Shown: in pieces, positions 1,234 through 61,409 of the stretch | How positions within the stretch are numbered: the stretch's first letter is position 1 | Layout: each line of letters begins with the position of its first letter | Notes under the pieces: model-generated | The model's input: only the letters and a program-made list of their open reading frames with translations | What the model was told of the DNA's origin: nothing | Databases searched by the model: none | Source of the DNA: Isurus oxyrinchus | Lineage: Eukaryota | Assembly: GCA_026770705.1 (NCBI GenBank) | Contig: JANJGN010000210.1 | Span: forward strand, 682,001-746,000 | DNA: 64,000 bases | Direction of reading: 5' to 3' | Position numbers and translations under genes: made by a program

Positions 1234-1292
1234 AGTATTTGCCCTACTCTCTCCCACTGTGACTGCCCGTGTAACAAGTTAGTATAAAATAC
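1234..1292 (-). pseudogene. Degenerate NAR-TCR D segment with 12/12 RSS (cassette 1)
   Basis: Plus strand AGTATTTGC-12nt-CACTGTG (1234-1261) is a good 12-RSS. The opposite RSS is degenerate (GCCCGTG-12nt-ATAAAATAC), leaving about 3 nt of D core. It lies between the V and J of the cassette. Confidence 0.55.
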
Positions 1293-4153: not shown

Positions 4154-4657
4154 AATTTTTCTATCCCGGGAAGCCGAGGCCAGTCGCTGTGTAACGTAGT
4201 ACTGAGCTTTACAGTAATAGGTGGTAGTGCCTTCAACTCTCACATGCCAAATTTCCAACGAAAATGTCTTTTCTGTTTTATTCATTATTCATTCAATGTC
4301 CCCCTGCTGGAGATCCTCTCCCGCTCTGCCCCGGTCTGGGTTTGTCTGATGAAAAGCCCCGTTTGGAAAATATCCCAATAACCAGCATGGAAAACACAGG
4401 TGATGGTGAGAGACTGACACTACTTCCTGGTCACCGCTGCTGGGGTTTGTGCCACTGGCTGACTGAAATCTCCTGGAAATTAAACAGAGATAGTTTCATG
4501 GACCATCAGAGCCGAATCACAGAACCGAGTTAAACCCCCTGTCTGTAATTGGGATGGACCCGAGCAGCTTTATATGAAATCCACATAATGTCGGTTTGTG
4601 TGATCGGTACTCACGGGGTAAACAGACACACGGAGTGAAAACAAAGTGGATTCCCAT
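4154..4657 (-). pseudogene. NAR-TCR V segment pseudogene, unrearranged (leader exon 4657-4615, V exon 4472-4192, 22-23 spacer RSS 4191-4154)
   Basis: Leader MGIHFVFTPCVCLP followed by GTGAGT. V exon DFSQPVAQTPAAVTRK*CQSLTITCVFHAGYWDIFQTGLFIRQTQTGAERERISSRG(frameshift)MNKTEKTFSLEIWHVRVEGTTTYYCKAQYY is VNAR-type (short FR2-CDR2) with an extra FR1 Cys. Heptamer CACAGCG, nonamer AGAAAAATT. One stop and one frameshift. TATA-like TATAAA at about 4682-4687. Confidence 0.9.
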
Positions 4658-8636: not shown

Positions 8637-10912
8637 TGCATTATATGATATTATACAGTGTTATGGTAAATTAATGTCAATTACTTGCAGTTCCATGCTC
8701 AATCATTACAAGCTTTTATTCAAAATAGTTTGCCGCACATTTATACAGATAGTTTATTTGATCACTGAAATATGTATTGAAAGTTATGACATTGCCTGAA
8801 CAATAATTTGTTATATTATTGAACATTAGATTATATTCTAATATAGTGAAATGCAACCTAGTGTTTTACTGTTGTGTGGAATTAAAACGTATCATGGTGT
8901 GGTCAAATTCATTTTCGTGTCCTGCTCTTATTAGAGTGTCAGAAAATAAATAAAACAATGCAATCATGATGTTATATCAATCGTAATGTAAAAATACATT
9001 TAGTTTTTACATGAGTGTGCAGCGTGACTTCTGGAAGGGTGTCACAATTACGACATAGCGAGTTCCTGCTGGCAGTCCCCATTGTTAATGTGTTACGGAA
9101 TTGATTATGGGAAAGTTTAAGAGAAATACGTCGTGATTGAAGATTTTTATTCTATTATATGTTTGGCTTGTGCTGGTAGGTTTCCTACAATTTGGATAAT
9201 TACATTTCTTAAACATTAGCTTGATGTGGCTGCCCCTGTCAAGGCCAAAATGCATTGTCCATCTCTAGTTTGCACTTGGGAAGGTGGAGTTGCGCTTGGT
9301 TCTTCAGCCATTGCAGTACTTATGGTCGGGATGCTTCACAAGAACTTGAACAAATTTGAACGACGTATTTGACCCAAAGTTTGATCAAAGAGTTAGGTTA
9401 TGAGGAACATCCTAGAGAAGGAAGGAGAGACAGAAAAGTTGAGAGCAGGAATTTCAGAGATGAGGGCCTCAGCGACTAAAAGCATTACCGAGGCTAAAGA
9501 ATGATAATTTCAGGGATACACACAAGATTAGAGGTACGCCGAGGCCTCAGATAGTTGCAGAATGTTACAGCGCAGGACGTGGCTATATTATGGGGGGGGG
9601 GGGAGTTTAAAACTCGAAGGCCGAGGTTATTGAAACCCAGACGATGCCGAATGGGGCCCAATGTAGATCAGCGAGCATAGGGTTAATGGACGGACGGGAT
9701 TTGGTATGAATGTGGGTATCGGCAGCTGTCTCAAATGAACTTAAATTGGATAACTAGCCCTGGGCTGACTAAGTGACGAGAGAGCTGAGATTGTGATGGG
9801 AACGGATTGCAATGCCTTCTGGATTGACACACATCTAATCCAGAATTGGATGTTTTACAATTACCAATGGCTTTTGAAGATTTGTGGTCTAGAGATGGCA
9901 AAGGAACGGATTAGGAGGGGATCAGTAACTGATTGGATAAGGCAGTAAATGGTGTTTGCAGTTCACTCGGTAACATCTCACTCTTTTTATCCCTCACGTT
10001 CATCTATCACCTAACATAGTGGTGATCATAATCCTATCCCGAAGACAGTGTGGACTCTCCCGGTGCATCACCTACTACCTGGTGGCAATAGCAGTAAGCG
10101 ATCTCCTGGTCATTATCACTGCCACCATCCTCAACCGGATCGGCCGGATCTACTTTCGTGACAGTGTCCTGTCGACCACCCCAGCAAGCGCAGTCAGGAT
10201 CATGCTGGTCTTTGCCATGCAAGATGGCTCAGTCTGGCTGACGGTTGCCTTCACCATCGCCCGTTTCGTGGCCATCTGCTGTCAGGGCCTAAAGACCAGA
10301 TACTGCACTGAGAAAACTGTGGTGCTGGTTATAGGAGTGGTCAGTACCCTGAGGTGCGTCAAGAACGTCCCTTTGTACTTCGTCTGCCAGCCCTTGTACA
10401 TCCTGGACGGGGTGCCCTGGTTCTGTGACCGCAAATCCACCTATTTCACTTTCCCCGCCTGGCAGACCTATGACTGGCTGGACCGCATCTTAACCCCATT
10501 TCTCCCTTTCTTCCTCAGCCTGCTGCTCAATGTCCTGACCGTAAGACACATCTTAGCGGCCAGCAGAGCCCGCAAGAGGCTCCGGGGCGCCGAGAGTCAC
10601 AGAGACCCCGAGATGGTCAGTCATAAGTGATCCATTATCCTGCTCTTTGCGATTGCACTCAGCTTCCTCCTCCCGTGGGCCACCTATGTTGGACATTTCC
10701 TCTACATGTGGATTACAAGTAAGGGCTGCTTCAACAGCATGAACTTCAATGACCCTCAGTATATCCTCCAGGAGACAGCCAACATGCTGCAGTTAGTCAG
10801 TTCCTGCAACAACGTCTTCATCTATGCGGTGGCCCAGAAGAAGTTCCGAGAGGAGCTGAGGAAGGTTTTGATGTGGCCGGTCACCACGTTCACTGGCTGG
10901 TTTAAACGGTAA
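8407..10912 (+). pseudogene. GPR139/GPR142-like class A GPCR pseudogene (exon 1 8407-8476, exon 2 ~10011-10912)
   Basis: Exon 1 (ACG)HGPANGLFFATCYPILAIIGAP then GTAAG. Exon 2 ANIVVIIILSRRQCGLSRCITYYLVAIAVSDLL...SVWLTVAFTIARFVAIC...SSCNNVFIYAVAQKKFREEL. The start ATG is ACG, the acceptor is damaged, and there is an in-frame TGA at 10628-10630. Confidence 0.88.
8600..8633. repeat. (TA)n microsatellite
   Basis: Direct TA run. Confidence 0.95.
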
Positions 10913-10949: not shown

Positions 10950-11370
10950 TCAGAGTAGTTCAATGTGTAGCACGCTCTCTCTCTCCAGAATCAGAAAGTG
11001 CTGGGTTCTCGCTCCCGGATCTGTCAGATTTCAGGCCCATACTGCAGTGCCGATAGTCCCACTGTGTCCCTGAAGGAATACTGAGCTAAGACAATTGTTG
11101 CGTTTCTGGATGAGATGTTAAACCACTGTGAGTATCTGCTCTCTTAGATCGATGTAATGACCCACAGTCGGAATTTCAGAAATGAGCAGGAGGAGCTTTC
11201 CCCAGCTTCTTACAATAACTGCCCCTCATTTAAACCAGTTGAAACCAACTATCTGAGTACTTTTCAATTACATTTGTGAAATATTGCTCTGCACATTTGC
11301 TGAAGTATTTCCTTCATTACAATGGGAAAACACTTAATTGGCAGTAAAGCACTTTGGGAAAATCCTGTAG
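10950..11370 (+). mobile_element. tRNA-derived SINE remnant (DeuSINE/SacSINE-like)
   Basis: AGTAGTTCAATG...GAATCAGAAAG..GGGTTC head and GATGAGATGTTAAACC core. A related reversed copy lies at about 48940-49200, 3' of the second GPCR. Confidence 0.5.
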
Positions 11371-31292: not shown

Positions 31293-31761
31293 ATGATGGT
31301 GCTCTTCCTGTACCTCTGTTTGTTTCTAGTTAGCTTTACTTGTGAGTGCTGATCATTTATTGATCGTAGAGTCATTAATATTTTAAATATTCTGGTTTAC
31401 TTTGTTGCATTTTAAAATGTCTCTTTTCACCGAGATTTGCTCCTTTATAATTTGCTCGTAGGTATCCGGGCCAGCATTGTGCTAACCCAACCGGATTCCA
31501 TCTCCAAAAACATTGGTGACTCTCTCCAACTGTCTTGTGCGGTGAGTGGGTACAATATCAACCAACATCATATGCACTGGATTAGAGAGGTCGCCGGGGG
31601 AGGGTTGGAATCCATACTCGCTTATAGGAAAGGGTACAACACCTCTTACGCGCCTGGAGTTCAAAGTCGAATCACTTTTTCAACTGAATCTTCCACAACC
31701 TATGTTGAGTTGAATAATTTGAAAACCGAGGACACGGCCATCTATTACTGTGCGAGGCAGT
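31293..31761 (+). CDS. IGHV: Intact IgH-type VH gene segment (leader exon 31293-31341, V exon 31462-31761); IgW-like by eye
   Basis: Leader MMVLFLYLCLFLVSFT with a phase-1 GTGAGT..TAG intron. V reads CIRASIVLTQPDSISKNIGDSLQLSCAVSGYNINQHHMHWIREVAGGGLESILAYRKGYNTSYAPGVQSRITFSTESSTTYVELNNLKTEDTAIYYCARQS, open, with both Cys and the conserved Trp. Confidence 0.95.
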
Positions 31762-31800
31762 CACGGTGAGAGAAACCAAGGCTGGACCCAGGAAAAAACA
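31762..31800 (+). other. 23-spacer RSS of VH
   Basis: CACGGTG-23nt-GAAAAAACA. Confidence 0.88.
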
Positions 31801-32133
31801 GAACGAGGGGGAATCTAAACGCTCCAGGCAGAACACCTCGTTCAGAAACAATGTTCGTAATACAGTCTGACTCTGAACCTCGAGTTACCCCTTAACTAAT
31901 GAATTTCAGCAAAACAATTGTTTGCTTTCTCATGTGTATTATGTTTAGCAAAAATGTTTGGAGACCCAGGGGCTAACGTTTCAACAATATGCTATTGAAG
32001 GATTTTAGAAGGACTGGCGATACATTCCTATCAGTTGGAATGAATCTATCCTGAACACTTCTCATCGTTGACAGTAAAGCAAACGCTCGTGAAATGGAGT
32101 CTGAAAGTCAGGATTTGATCAGAAAGGGAATGC

Positions 32134-32208
32134 AGTATTTGTGCGGGCGTGTGTCACTGTGATACTATGGGGTGGGGTATCACATTACTAACTGTCAATA
32201 CAAAAAAC
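32134..32208 (+). other. IgH-type D segment (core 32162-32180) with 12/12 RSS
   Basis: AGTATTTGT-12-CACTGTG | ATACTATGGGGTGGGGTAT | CACATTA-12-ACAAAAAAC. Confidence 0.9.
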
Positions 32209-32536
32209 CCGACAGAACTTATAGGCTCAGTCTGGATCACTGACTGCGAGTATGAGTTCGCTATACATGTGGTGAAGCAGTGTTGATATTGTAATCCAGA
32301 ACTGAAACTCTCGCCGGGTTTAAGAGAGAGAGAGAGAGAACTGCTAGATAATTATTCAGGAATCAGTTGGTGATTGGAAGAAGCATTCAATTTGGGCAAT
32401 CAAATGAGGAAAGACTGATGTATAAACATGAAAATTAATTAAATTGTACCTTTGTTATGCTTTAGAAATCTATTGTTAGTTGTGCGATGTTACTTTCTAA
32501 AAGAATGGCCTCTTTCCTCAATTTTATGCAGGACCC

Positions 32537-32629
32537 ATTTATTGTGTGGCCCATTGCAGGGAATGTAACACAGTGGTACTGATAGCCTTGACTACTGGGG
32601 ACAAGGTACCAAAGTTACAGTGACGGCAG
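32537..32629 (+). other. IGHJ: JH segment (32576-32629) with 23-RSS and intact donor
   Basis: ATTTATTGT-23-CACAGTG, then TDSLDYWGQGTKVTVTA (WGxG motif) and G|GTAAG. Confidence 0.95.
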
Positions 32630-34059
32630 GTAAGAAACATGCACTATCTTAATAAATAGGTTATATTCCTGTCTTTATCTTAAATTATGTTTTTTTTTAA
32701 TTAATTACTTTGGCCATCCATTATGATTAGTGGGCTCTTTAAGTTTGAATGCAATGTTACTTGTGATTGTGCTCAAGGTGCTGTTAGAATAAAGCGACTG
32801 TTCCAGAGTAGGTGCCGGTCTGGGGTTGAACCTCTCACTAAACTGTTGATGTTATACGGACAGAATCTGACAACAGTAAACAAATGAGTTCTGTGACAGT
32901 CTATGTCTCTGGCCCTTTTCATGATATATTGATATTCTTTGAGATGATGTGATACCGTAGTATTGTGACAGAGTTGAACATTCGCGAATCTTCGCTGTGA
33001 AACACAGAACTATTTCAAATAGACCATTGCTAAGTCCGTCATTTGAAATACACTCCGAGAGCAGATCTGTTTTATGTCATGTTATTATGTTTTACAATGT
33101 GGATAATTTACCGCGAGCATCTAGTGAGAAAAGAATATTAGAATCACAGATCATTTCAATGTGATTTTATTGAAGAAAGAAAAGCATTTGCCAGTTGTGC
33201 GTAACTTTTGGAACGATACACGATATATTCATAAAAAAGCAAAATACTGTGGATGCTGGAAATCTGAACTAAAAACAGAAAATGCAGGAACAACTCAGCA
33301 CGTTTGGCAGCATCTATGGAGAATGAAACAAAGTTAACGTTTCGAGATCGTATGGCTCTTCTTCAGAGTTCTGACTCGAAACATTAACACTGTTTCTCAC
33401 TCAATTTGTTAATATTGATTAAGTTTATATTGGAAGCCCTAAATTGAACAGAGTGATGGAGTGTAGTGTGATAGCCTCTAAAACACAAAAGTTATCAGAC
33501 ACAAACAGTTGCAAATTTCACATTTGTTCATCTTATTAAAATACAGCAAACATTTACAAATTTCGGAGGTGATTTAGAGAACGATTTAAATTCGTTTTTT
33601 CCTAATATGTGAAATACGCCCTGAGAATAGACGGAGTTTATGCTATATCATTTTGTTCAAAAACATGTAATGTTTATAAGGGTGCAAGCAGATAGTAAGA
33701 CTGCTCATTTTAAATCAATGAAGTTGAATTTGCTTCAAGTAAAATAACATTAACCAAATGTATTCATATATTGAGTGGACACTAAATTTTTAATATTGAT
33801 AAAGTATCCTGTTAACCTAACTTGAACGGTAAAATCTCGCGAATTACCAGGCAGGAGCAGGATTGAAATTGATATTAACTAATACCTTTATAATACAGGA
33901 TACATGAACGAATGGATATTATCTTGCACGAATATTATCTGACAATAATTCGAACTTTTTATCGCATCAAACATAAACAACCTTCTACAATTTCATTGTA
34001 AACTGGCCAGGATTACCATGAGTGCAAATTCTGAAGGGTTGCAGAGAATATTTAATGAT

Positions 34060-40464: not shown

Positions 40465-40586
40465 GGCAGCTTCTTTCGATACTTAACCTATTCTTTACAA
40501 AGACATGAGTACTGACAGTTTGGTGTATTATTACTCTCTCTGAGACTCACAGTGATGTGGAGCAATCTCACCACCGTGCAAAAACT
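40465..40586 (+). pseudogene. 3' stub of a TCR V segment with well-preserved 23-RSS
   Basis: AASFDT*..DMSTDSLVYYYS(L)R resembles the end of 55887-56192. RSS CACAGTG(40548)-23-GCAAAAACT. The 5' part is replaced by the tandem repeat. Confidence 0.75.
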
Positions 40587-45239: not shown

Positions 45240-46300
45240 TCTTTAAATTACCTTAAGCCTCTTTGCATTTGTTACTGCACTCGCTCTTTCTCAGTTAATA
45301 TGATGCTAGTCCCTGTCTCAGTTATTATGAAACAATACCATGACCACGCTGTTAAATTGCATTAGAAACCGTATCTGCTTAATTAAGCTGCACAAAATTC
45401 TGCTTATTCCACATGAGACTATGTATCTACTTATATTACATAAGCTTCCGTCTCAATTATGACTGCAGTAAACCACAGCACTGAATTTGCTGCACGGGAC
45501 CATGTCCATTTTTTATTATATAATGCAACTTCTTCTGTTACATTAGACTCTGTTTTTATTTATATTAAACTCGACCATTTATTTGACTGTGCCATTTTTG
45601 ACCATGTCTCTCTTTATATTAGACTAGACCACGTCGCTGTTTATATTACACTATAACCTGTTTGTTTATATTACACTCGACCCCGCTTCTGTTTCTATTA
45701 AACTATATTCCACCTCTTGTCTGTATTACACTAGGCTTTATCCCTGTTTGTAATATGCAAGGCCCTCTCTCTCTTAAATTGCACTAAACCCTGTCTTTGT
45801 TTATGTTGAACTGGACCACGTCTCTGTTAGTATTATACTAAACCCTATAACTGTTTGTATTATACTAGGTCAAGTCTCAGTTTATATTCCAGCAAGCTTA
45901 GTTGTTTTTGCATCTGTCTATATGCTTTTATATTAACCTACACCCTACCGTGGTTATTACTGCAGCAGGACTTGTCTCAGTTTGCAGGACTTTCGTTCAT
46001 GTTTCAGTTAACCTGACACTGGGACACGCTACGTCTCTTTCTTTTATATTTCACTTGATCTTGCATCCATTTTTATTATATACGACATTGTTTTTATTCA
46101 TAATAAACTGGAAAATGCGTTTGTTCATATCCCATGAATGTCTTAGCCATTACTAGACGAGACACTGCCTCTGTTTAAATCATAACGCTGGAATTTCTGA
46201 TTTTCATTTAATAACAGGCCCTGCTGCTGCTTGGCTGTATCAGTTTATATCACTCGAGGCAATTTCTCATGTGTAACTGGACTAGGCTATGCCTCTGCTG
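45240..46300 (+). repeat. Degenerate ~27-bp tandem repeat
   Basis: TTTATATTACACTAGACCCTGTCTCTG-like units, clearest at 45600-45900. Confidence 0.75.
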
Positions 46301-55663: not shown

Positions 55664-55886
55664 GTACTTTGTACAAGTTTCCATGCATTGTGTATCTCCA
55701 TGTGTCTGCAATCCCACAATGTTCAGGATTTTGTACAGCGCCCTCCGTGCTCTGTATCACTGCGTCTGTAATCCCACCATGTTCAGGATTTTGCACAACT
55801 CTCTCCGTGCTCTGTATCACTGTGTGTCTGTAATCCCACCATGTTCAGGTTTTTGTACGGCTCTCTCCGTGTTCTGCATCACTGTG
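55664..55886 (-). repeat. Tandem ~60-62-bp repeat, each unit carrying a 23-RSS
   Basis: RSS1 CACAGTG-23-ACAAAAACC (55886-55848); RSS2 CACAGTG-23-GCAAAATCC (55824-55786); RSS3 CGCAGTG-23-ACAAAATCC (55764-55726); degenerate fourth copy at about 55704-55664. Confidence 0.9.
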
Positions 55887-56192
55887 CTGTGGGCCGACTC
55901 AGTGCACAGTAATACACAGCGGAGTCGCTCAGTTGTAGTTTGAAGATATTTAACCGGCTGATTTTCTCGGCAGAATCGATAGAAGCAGAAATTCTCTCCC
56001 CGGCAGCATTTTCTTTATTCTCCTCTCCTGAAGTGTGTCTCTGAAGCAGATATTCTGGAGCCTGTCCTGGGGACTGACGGTACCAGTGTACTGTGTACTG
56101 ACAGATACCTGAATATTCACAGCTTAAAGTAACGGTGTCACCAGCAGCAGAGGTTTGTAAAGGCGGATTCTGGAATATCAGGAGACTGGAAC
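55887..56192 (-). CDS. TRDV: Intact leaderless supporting TCR V-delta segment of NAR-TCR (STCRDV-type)
   Basis: Phase-1 acceptor CCTTCAG, then GSSLLIFQNPPLQTSAAGDTVTLSCEYSGICQYTVHWYRQSPGQAPEYLLQRHTSGEENKENAAGERISASIDSAEKISRLNIFKLQLSDSAVYYCALSRPT. Non-canonical CDR1 Cys, perfect 23-RSS. No leader exon seen upstream; the nearest donor is the NAR J at 60038. Confidence 0.93.
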
Positions 56193-60038: not shown

Positions 60039-60383
60039 CAGCTGTGACAGTCACCTCTGTCCCAGAACCGTCTGCATAACCATCTTTCCAAATGGAACCA
60101 CATCCATATTTATACTGAGCTTTACAGTAATAGGTGGCTATGTCTTCAACTCTCACATCCCGAATTTCCAGAGAAAAAATATTTTCTGCTTTATTCATCG
60201 ACACAACAAATCTACCCCCACTGGAGATCCGCTCCCGCTCAGTCCCAGTCTGGGTTTGTCTGAAGAAATGTCTGTCCTATAAACGATGAGAATTACCATG
60301 GAAAATGCAGGTGATGGTGAGAGACTGACACTCCTTCCTGGTCACCGCTGCCGGGGTCTGTACCACTGACTGATTGAAAGAGC
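60039..60383 (-). pseudogene. Pre-joined (RSS-less) NAR-TCR V-D-J exon
   Basis: GSFNQSVVQTPAAVTRKECQSLTITCIFHGNSHRL*DRHFFRQTQTGTERERISSGGRFVVSMNKAENIFSLEIRDVRVEDIATYYCKAQYKYGCGSIWKDGYADGSGTEVTVTA|G GTAAGT in one frame. TAG at 60277-60279. The leader donor is mutated and the leader truncated at about 60525-60545. Confidence 0.92.
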
Positions 60384-61409
60384 CTGGCAATTAAACAGAG
60401 AGAGTTTAATGGACCATCAAAGCCAAAACCCAGAACGGGGCTAAAACCCCACACAGTGTCTGCAATTGGGATGGATTCGGGCAGCTTTATATAAGATTTA
60501 CACAATGTCAGTTTGTTTGATCGGTATTCAGGGGGTAAACAGGGGCTGCTCTTGGAGACTGGGGCTCAGAGCTGGACTGAAATACTTTAGAGCGTAGAGT
60601 TCCTTTGCAGAGGGCTGTGTCCCGCGGAGCATTGACAGGCCACATGGTTCCCATCTCTCTGGTAGTGTGTTGTGTGAATAAGTGACAGAGTTAAAAACGG
60701 AACCTGCAGTTTCATGTTGCTTCCTTGGGCCTGTGAGCCTGATGTGAAGTCCCCTCTCCCATTTGTCTGATATTCAGTGCCCTGCGTAATGGGGCAAGGG
60801 AGGTGGAGCTGTTTCTTAGTGAAGTCTGCCACCTTCATTCTCCCACAGTAATGAGCCTGCAGGTCGGTCCATATGTGTTTGGCAAATGGTATTTTATGAG
60901 AGTGGGATGTGAGATAATCCCTCCTTCCCCAATATTATTCTAACTGTCATGAAAAAACAGAAAATGCTGGAAAGAGCTCGGCAGATCTGGCAGCATCTGT
61001 GAAGAGTGAAACAGAATTAACGTTTCGAGTTTGTATGACTCTTCTTCAGAGTTACCTGTGCTGGAAATTATGAAACATCTCCCTGAACTGGCTGGTGGGC
61101 CTTCAGTTGAAAGTCCGTGCCAAGGGAAGGAGCCTTACACCTGCCTTAGTCCAGCATCTGAGTATCAGATTACAATGTGAGACAGTCCAGTGACTTTGCC
61201 AATATTCAGGCGGAAGAACAGAAACACCACAAAGAATAAACTCTCCACTTCATTGAAACAAATGCTTGCTGCACACCTTCCCCTGTGACTTGCACTTAAA
61301 ATGATGTTTCCAGAAAGCAGTGTTTCTTTCCAGGTCTGGACTATTCAGAGTTTCAGTTGTAGTGTTAGAACATGAAGTCACACTCAGAGGGACAGTTGAA
61401 ATGGGGGTG

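Follow-up and report, generated by a model that had tools for sequence, protein, structure and literature searches.

To our knowledge, an RSS is normally present once per gene end. The locus analysed here raises the question of why one V segment should be followed by a row of RSSs, and whether the additional copies have a role in V(D)J joining. The window, i.e., the whole stretch of 64,000 nucleotides that was analysed (C210:682001-746000 of the 5.0-Gb genome G000), carries the array on its minus strand (Table 1). The repeat unit consists of a heptamer, a spacer of 23, a nonamer, and a 23-bp linker, so that the 3' flank belongs to the unit. TRF gave the array a period of 62 (or 60), 3.0 copies, 87% matches, and a score of 281, the highest among the 33 TRF rows for the window. 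The first-pass annotation had described a 60-62-bp tandem repeat with two CACAGTG copies followed by a 23 spacer, a third copy reading CGCAGTG, and a decayed fourth. The period, the three 23-RSS units, and the coordinates agree with this description; the heptamer and spacer of RSS2 are as claimed, and the imperfect nonamer of RSS2 is an added detail. The units of the array diverge from one another by 13%. RSS1 is the sole exact-consensus 23-RSS within the window (shuffled controls, 0/100). RSS2 combines the CAC start, near-consensus nonamer, and 23±1 spacer of a functional 23-RSS, and RSS3 and unit 4 do not. Inside the array no RSS match was found on the plus strand, and every unit faces one direction. 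Linker 1 was considered as a D segment between RSS1 and RSS2 and was ruled out, since it has no opposite-facing 5' RSS.

Table 1. Features of the RSS array and its cassette in the window (window positions), and the cassettes that share one germline VDJ junction.
Feature	Position or loci	Strand	Description
RSS1, array unit 1	55886-55848	-	23-RSS of the supporting V-delta, heptamer and nonamer both consensus, spacer of 23
In-frame TGA	55881-55879	-	Made by heptamer positions 6-7 and spacer position 1; V reads ...YYCALSRPTAQ*
Linker 1	55825-55847	-	23 bp, 3' flank inside the repeat unit
RSS2	55824-55786	-	CACAGTG / 23 / GCAAAATCC; perfect heptamer, nonamer with 2 mismatches
Linker 2	55765-55785	-	21 bp; CA slippage
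RSS3	55764-55726	-	CGCAGTG (CAC lost) / 23 / ACAAAATCC; nonamer with 1 mismatch
Linker 3	55703-55725	-	23 bp
Decayed unit 4	55702-55664	-	Shared with 10 further fetched cassettes of its flank type, in which it forms the terminal flank
Supporting TCR V-delta exon	55887-56192	-	Open frame, splice acceptor, no leader, CDR1 cysteine
Germline-joined NAR-TCR V-D-J exon	60039-60383	-	Intact splice donor; a-b loop Cys present, canonical Trp absent; TAG stop at 60277-60279
NAR leader exon remnant	60531-60542	-	ATG, donor, and most of the exon all gone, compared with intact paralogue L042
VDJ-joined NAR clade, one shared junction	L031-L035, L037, L055, L057, L060		Leaders broken in 9/9; NAR exon of the window is of the same kind

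The V segment in front of the array belongs to an NAR-TCR cassette, a layout that reportedly goes back to Criscitiello 2006. Its splice acceptor (56193/56192) lies immediately before the V exon, its CDR1 cysteine is within CEYSGICQY, and it sits 3.8 kb downstream of an NAR V exon. The best PDB matches of the latter were VNAR domains (E 1e-21), and it has its own J and the motifs KECQS and RHFFRQ, with the a-b loop Cys and without the WYRK Trp. A leaderless supporting V, a CDR1 Cys, and an NAR V upstream are the hallmarks of NAR-TCR in the sections of PMC1845163 consulted, in agreement with the supporting V-delta identity assigned by the first-pass annotation. The layout known from cartilaginous fish, in which a leaderless supporting V-delta comes after NAR V-D-J (PMC1845163, PMC5931798, and PMC3457774, each in excerpt), is found here with the same hallmark residues. 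The excerpts of these sources do not mention repeated RSSs, whereas here most supporting V have 2-10 head-to-tail 23-RSSs, and the NAR exon of the window further differs in being germline-joined and dead. The nearest named protein was a Carcharodon model (98%), which points to a shark. The cassette lacks the working leader and open NAR V frame of a functional one. On its sequence it is a pseudogene, predicted to be unable to make an NAR-TCR chain because the NAR exon holds a TAG and the leader is mostly deleted. It has two copies on C26 that are 99.6% identical over 9.9 kb; both are oriented as the C exon there, at 3.2 and 6.5 Mb from it.

Multi-unit pieces were present in contigs from 4/4 DNA runs (organisms A and B, four studies), with joints that return by 60 or 122-124 bases. 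The unit had about three times the read depth of the V exon, a ratio that was set aside because depth is no copy number. Translation extends into the RSS in 12 of 63 homologous proteins and past the first unit in 9, and all nine go on into the second; in seven, this continuation scored 36-68 compared with shuffled maxima of 19-39, and two show only its first residues. The read-through gene models are from Hemiscyllium (5), Rhincodon, Stegostoma, and Pristiophorus, together with P0043 (about five units), the DNA-level RSS units of these other sharks being deduced from protein translation. Most carpet-shark models imply a second heptamer without CAC, and about 30 models from other sharks end at the heptamer TGA. 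Carpet sharks and sawsharks fall into the two lineages that are separated by the deepest split among sharks. Because both have the unit, a single origin of the unit and of its edge, at an early stage of shark evolution, is likely. In P0043, the V frame stays open over residues 116-219, across about five largely intact RSS units. A protein search with this translated array found only P0043 itself (1 match among 253 candidates), and a near-length protein search retrieved one unnamed protein and no protein named NAR-TCR. Where a locus is highly duplicated, a short tandem repeat might arise in assembly, and with two 99.6% identical copies on C26, haplotypes or false duplications may account for some of the paralogues. 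However, the units are 13% divergent, the arrays differ over dozens of loci, multi-unit contigs come from every run, and gene models of other species translate the unit. The repeat is not an artefact: that explanation is refuted for the existence of the array and bears on the exact gene count only.

The V query gave 150 scored matches in the genome, 104 of them with an identity of at least 54%. Of these 104 cassettes, 65 were fetched, comprising all 54 on C26 and all 11 on C242, and the 39 matches on smaller contigs were excluded on the assumption that they are probably alternate copies. An NAR V was present upstream, within the fetched stretch, for 62/65. Two to ten units were found in 44 cassettes, one in 19, and none in 2, with partial terminal units uncounted (units:cassettes, 0:2, 1:19, 2:14, 3:11, 4:6, 5:7, 6:1, 7:1, 8:3, 10:1). 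These 44 cassettes and the models of other sharks answer the earlier question of whether the array recurs in other supporting V-delta genes and species, and it is not unique to this copy. Behind conventional V, for which 15/46 hits were fetched, no second unit was found (0/15) by a finder that was modelled on the spacer of the supporting-V family. A spacer-free pattern (exact nonamer, N5..30, exact heptamer, N22..24, RCAAAA), which would miss arrays of weaker RSSs elsewhere, gave 78 matches genome-wide, 78/78 with the linker of the supporting-V family, and the reversed-pattern control gave 0. By this exact-pattern genome search, head-to-tail RSS arrays are restricted to the NAR-TCR supporting V family. 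In five near-identical cassettes (L021-L025, about 1415-1780), a deletion has removed the supporting V from CDR1 up to a point within the first spacer, and the leftover array, with intact inner RSSs, is followed by a GATA microsatellite.

The consequences of joining at an extra RSS depend on what lies downstream. A TCR C exon is located at C26:29.90 Mb and another at C242:617 kb, each preceded by one D (12/23), 11 J identified by motif, and one more J identified by its RSS. The D came from the region fetched upstream of C, and a strict D-segment pattern search gave 0 matches. We infer from the D segment that the D-J-C unit is delta. The loci L113-L118 (C26:29.90-29.93 Mb) and L122-L125 (C242:590-619 kb) both hold one D, about 12 J, and a single TCR C, and their J and C sequences are markedly different; the D-J-C unit on C242 may be a divergent haplotype or a second locus. 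Cassettes on C26 lie up to 10 Mb from C.

The first-pass annotation had stated that a joint at RSS2 would keep RSS1 and its in-frame stop. Of the 33 intact V with at least two units, 31 meet a stop in the V frame within RSS1 or the linker, and for these the statement is correct. It had also stated that the retained V-RSS1 could be joined later, and this is geometrically possible: because one D and at least 11 J with a 12-RSS exist, V-RSS1 could join a later J after the wasted first joint. The second-chance rearrangement that it proposed has the events in the wrong order. Once RSS1 has been joined, the whole array is gone, so that no extra RSS is left to make good a failed RSS1 joint; from this geometry, the use of an extra RSS is predicted to amount to a detour and to offer no second chance. 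Because the C26 twins of the window's cassette have the orientation of C, the outer units would be the first that a scanning RAG encounters. In mouse Igk, linear scanning is dominated by the strong RSSs that are met first (PMC13190342, in excerpt), and in mouse and human an inner RSS is, as a rare event, left in the coding joint after outer-RSS use (PMC6857471, in excerpt).

Selection was assessed by parsimony, with 43 unique sequences for first units and 94 for extra units (62 of these internal), and with trees from 62 columns, which are weak. The 16 signal sites were compared with 46 spacer and linker sites, for a neutral share of 0.26. RSS1 had 15 signal and 108 spacer/linker changes (share 0.12, p=0.0002), all extras had 69 and 238 (0.225, p=0.10), and internal extras had 49 and 153 (0.24, p=0.34); the share differed between RSS1 and internal extras (p=0.009). 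The CAC share was 0.070 in extras and 0.061 in internal extras, compared with a neutral value of 0.061. Changes per site in RSS1 were 0.67 for CAC and 2.35 for both spacer and linker. The corresponding values were 6.0, 4.3, and 6.0 in extras and 3.3, 3.0, and 3.7 in internal extras, with 3.0 for the nonamer in the latter. Judged by these counts, purifying selection on RSS1 is clear. For the extra units, the 16-site test gave no sign of it, either on CAC or on the signal as a whole, and a weak residue may remain. With 13 signal sites, all extras were deficient in changes (p=0.006), a deficit expected in part because the units were picked for RSS likeness and inherit the conservation of RSS1.

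The condition of the units is in line with this difference. CAC is lost in 24/123 extras and 3/63 first units, and a perfect RSS is found in 30/123 and 48/63, respectively; under a loose rule, 81/123 extras would be cleavable. Perfect extras make up 3/33 in intact and 27/90 in broken cassettes (p=0.018, the cassettes not being independent), and their rarity in intact cassettes points to some selection against them. With integrity scored by strict J detection, which missed some J, the mean copy number was 2.7 in 19 apparently intact and 3.0 in 44 broken cassettes (p=0.76), and arrays were present in 16/19 and 28/44, respectively (p=0.14). Intact cassettes with a single RSS are L045, L048, and L090. 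The longest arrays (mean 5.2) belong to the nine VDJ-joined cassettes, and the link of germline-joined NAR exons with long arrays (p=0.002) is not evidence, since the nine share one junction and one clade. Arrays also survive behind five V copies that have lost most of the exon. Copy number changes quickly: it differs in 5/64 paralogue pairs at an identity of at least 97% and in 7/10 pairs at 95-97%, and pairs that are 98-99% identical can be up to three units apart. Linker lengths are mostly 21-24, and a 50-bp unit variant was found in three distant V clades. This shared variant and the unequal close paralogues are expected of slippage and exchange between loci.

Taken together, the array is best read as an old, family-specific 62-bp RSS minisatellite that is anchored by the selected RSS1 and persists near neutrality, likely without being selected for; we give this reading a probability of about 0.62. 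The unit comprises the 23-RSS of the NAR-TCR supporting V-delta and 23 bp of 3' flank. RSS1, pinned by selection, would serve as the master copy, while new units would continually be created by slippage and by unequal exchange, both inside single arrays and from one paralogous array to another, and would then decay at about the background rate. Intact extra units are predicted to be cut by RAG part of the time, and the resulting joints would nearly always be non-productive, yet V-RSS1 would still be able to join a downstream J. The cost of such joints would be small but might suffice for mild purging in working cassettes. The array resembles minisatellites and VNTRs in its head-to-tail 62-bp units (10-100 bp class), the 1-10 copies among paralogues, variant units, 123-bp higher-order repeats, rapid copy-number change, and variant exchange between loci. 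It differs in that the shark unit is a complete recombinase target and that the first unit is held by selection. Several observations speak against the near-neutral reading. Persistence in distant sharks with a recognisable linker, and in one family only, is long for a neutral minisatellite, and the 13-site deficit, the fewer perfect extras in intact cassettes, the many cleavable-looking extras, and the frequency of arrays in intact cassettes point the same way.

A selected function is the main competitor. As a RAG lure and stepping stone, several RSSs would raise the capture of a cassette megabases away from D-J, the outer joint being made first and the V-RSS1 joint afterwards. The restriction of arrays to the supporting V, whose second rearrangement must be completed, their age in sharks, and the distances of up to 10 Mb on C26 would suit such a role, as would the J that V-RSS1 can still reach, the dominance of first-met strong RSSs in mouse Igk (PMC13190342, in excerpt), and the proportion of intact cassettes with arrays. 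However, CAC and the signal sites of the extras show no purifying selection, copy number is unlinked to integrity, perfect extras are fewer in intact cassettes, and single-RSS cassettes can be intact. We consider this role unlikely, and selection for the decoy or recruiter proposed in the first-pass annotation is not supported, on the same grounds, the window's cassette being itself a pseudogene. It is far less probable that the extras act as alternative cut sites, each unit adding about 20 residues to the supporting domain's CDR3. The frame is open through RSS1 in L092, L093, and the carpet-shark models, and over about five units in P0043. However, it is closed in the other 31 of the 33 intact V, the next heptamers are damaged in both open ones, and about 30 models of other sharks end at the heptamer TGA; the read-through models are a selected subset, and one unit frame is stop-free by chance.

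The origin of the repeat is a related matter. A 12-nt linker deletion abuts the heptamer without microhomology, and a 7-nt deletion abuts it with one added base; deletions of this kind, with or without an added base, resemble open-and-shut joints. The left edge of the unit is exactly the heptamer edge, with V ends and linker ends differing up to that base, and RAG cuts at this edge (PMC2118463, in excerpt). Germline RAG activity at the locus is implied by the joined NAR exons in 20/65 cassettes, 9 VDJ-joined and 11 VD-joined, the latter not by itself a sign of breakage since some VD-joined NAR ends can be trimmed. A duplication started by RAG is plausible. That a germline nick or break at the heptamer edge both began the duplication and still drives gains and losses is improbable: the events are few and counted after the fact (three of the five indels of at least 4 nt touch the edge), the junction, a CA repeat, is itself liable to plain slippage, the genome pattern search found arrays in no other RSS family, and no signal joints or target-site duplications occur among the arrays listed. 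A RAG-made origin can coexist with the near-neutral minisatellite reading. Its combination with the stepping-stone role, i.e., a RAG-seeded array kept since before the main shark lineages split, through which a distant cassette reaches D-J by a non-productive outer-RSS joint and then an RSS1-to-later-J joint, appears doubtful.

A gene family with up to ten tandem RSSs across sharks has no earlier report that we found. In agreement with the first-pass annotation, which knew of no standard description, a limited literature search including excerpts of PMC12227049, PMC6795676, PMC3457774, PMC3149040, and PMC5931798 gave no description of RSS arrays, so novelty is provisional; the 'multiple RSS' passages in the excerpts of PMC9248892 and 10.64898/2026.09.05.749481 concern other matters. 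Two known processes are similar in part. In cryptic or alternative RSS use, as covered in the excerpt of PMC6857471, an outer-RSS cut leaves the inner RSS in the coding joint, an event that the array would allow. There, however, the outer sites are either chance or dissimilar sequences and use is rare, whereas the shark ones are family-wide tandem copies of the gene's own RSS. Secondary V-to-J rearrangement, as covered in the excerpt of PMC13190342, is similar in that several J allow serial joints and strong first-met RSSs are used first; editing swaps in an upstream V, whereas in sharks the same V would be re-used via its inner RSS. Even if neutral, the arrays provide a built-in ruler, with joints spread over units of graded quality and position. 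This spread would tell linear RAG scanning from D-J, in which outer units come first, from diffusion capture, and would also show how much non-productive joining a T cell tolerates. For annotation, RSS counts overstate gene counts at the NAR-TCR supporting V. If units were made by germline RAG or used for two-step joining, the arrays would represent a new route of V(D)J assembly.

The germline-joined NAR clade, of which we found no mention in the excerpts of the NAR-TCR literature examined, extends beyond this genome: the Carcharodon models P0002 and P0003 have the same VDJ junction, one with an intact-looking leader. In marsupial TCR-mu it is the supporting V that is pre-joined, and the shark cassette is the mirror case, with the NAR V pre-joined.

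Other parts of the window and its surroundings also contain receptor-like sequences. Outside the window, about 13 kb beyond its start, is a supporting V (L015) whose array has 7 units. A second, broken NAR V with a leader occupies 4190-4657 (-), and a D-type 12-RSS lies 3 kb downstream of it at 1234-1261 (-). An orphan 23-RSS at 40500-40586 (+) follows a short remnant like a V 3' end (TDSLVYYYSL), with no V frame upstream. An apparent heptamer pair at 11060/11124, without a nonamer or V, was attributed to chance, and a 27-bp tandem repeat (10.8 copies, 63% matches) spans 45600-45888. The stretch at 10300-10900 is coding-like and, by eye, presumably resembles a seven-transmembrane receptor. Inside the NAR-TCR region and in the opposite orientation, 31296-32630 (+) holds an IgH-like leader, an open V, a D with 12/12 RSS, and a J (DYWGQG), a cluster that we presume may be TAILV-like or an IgH cluster.
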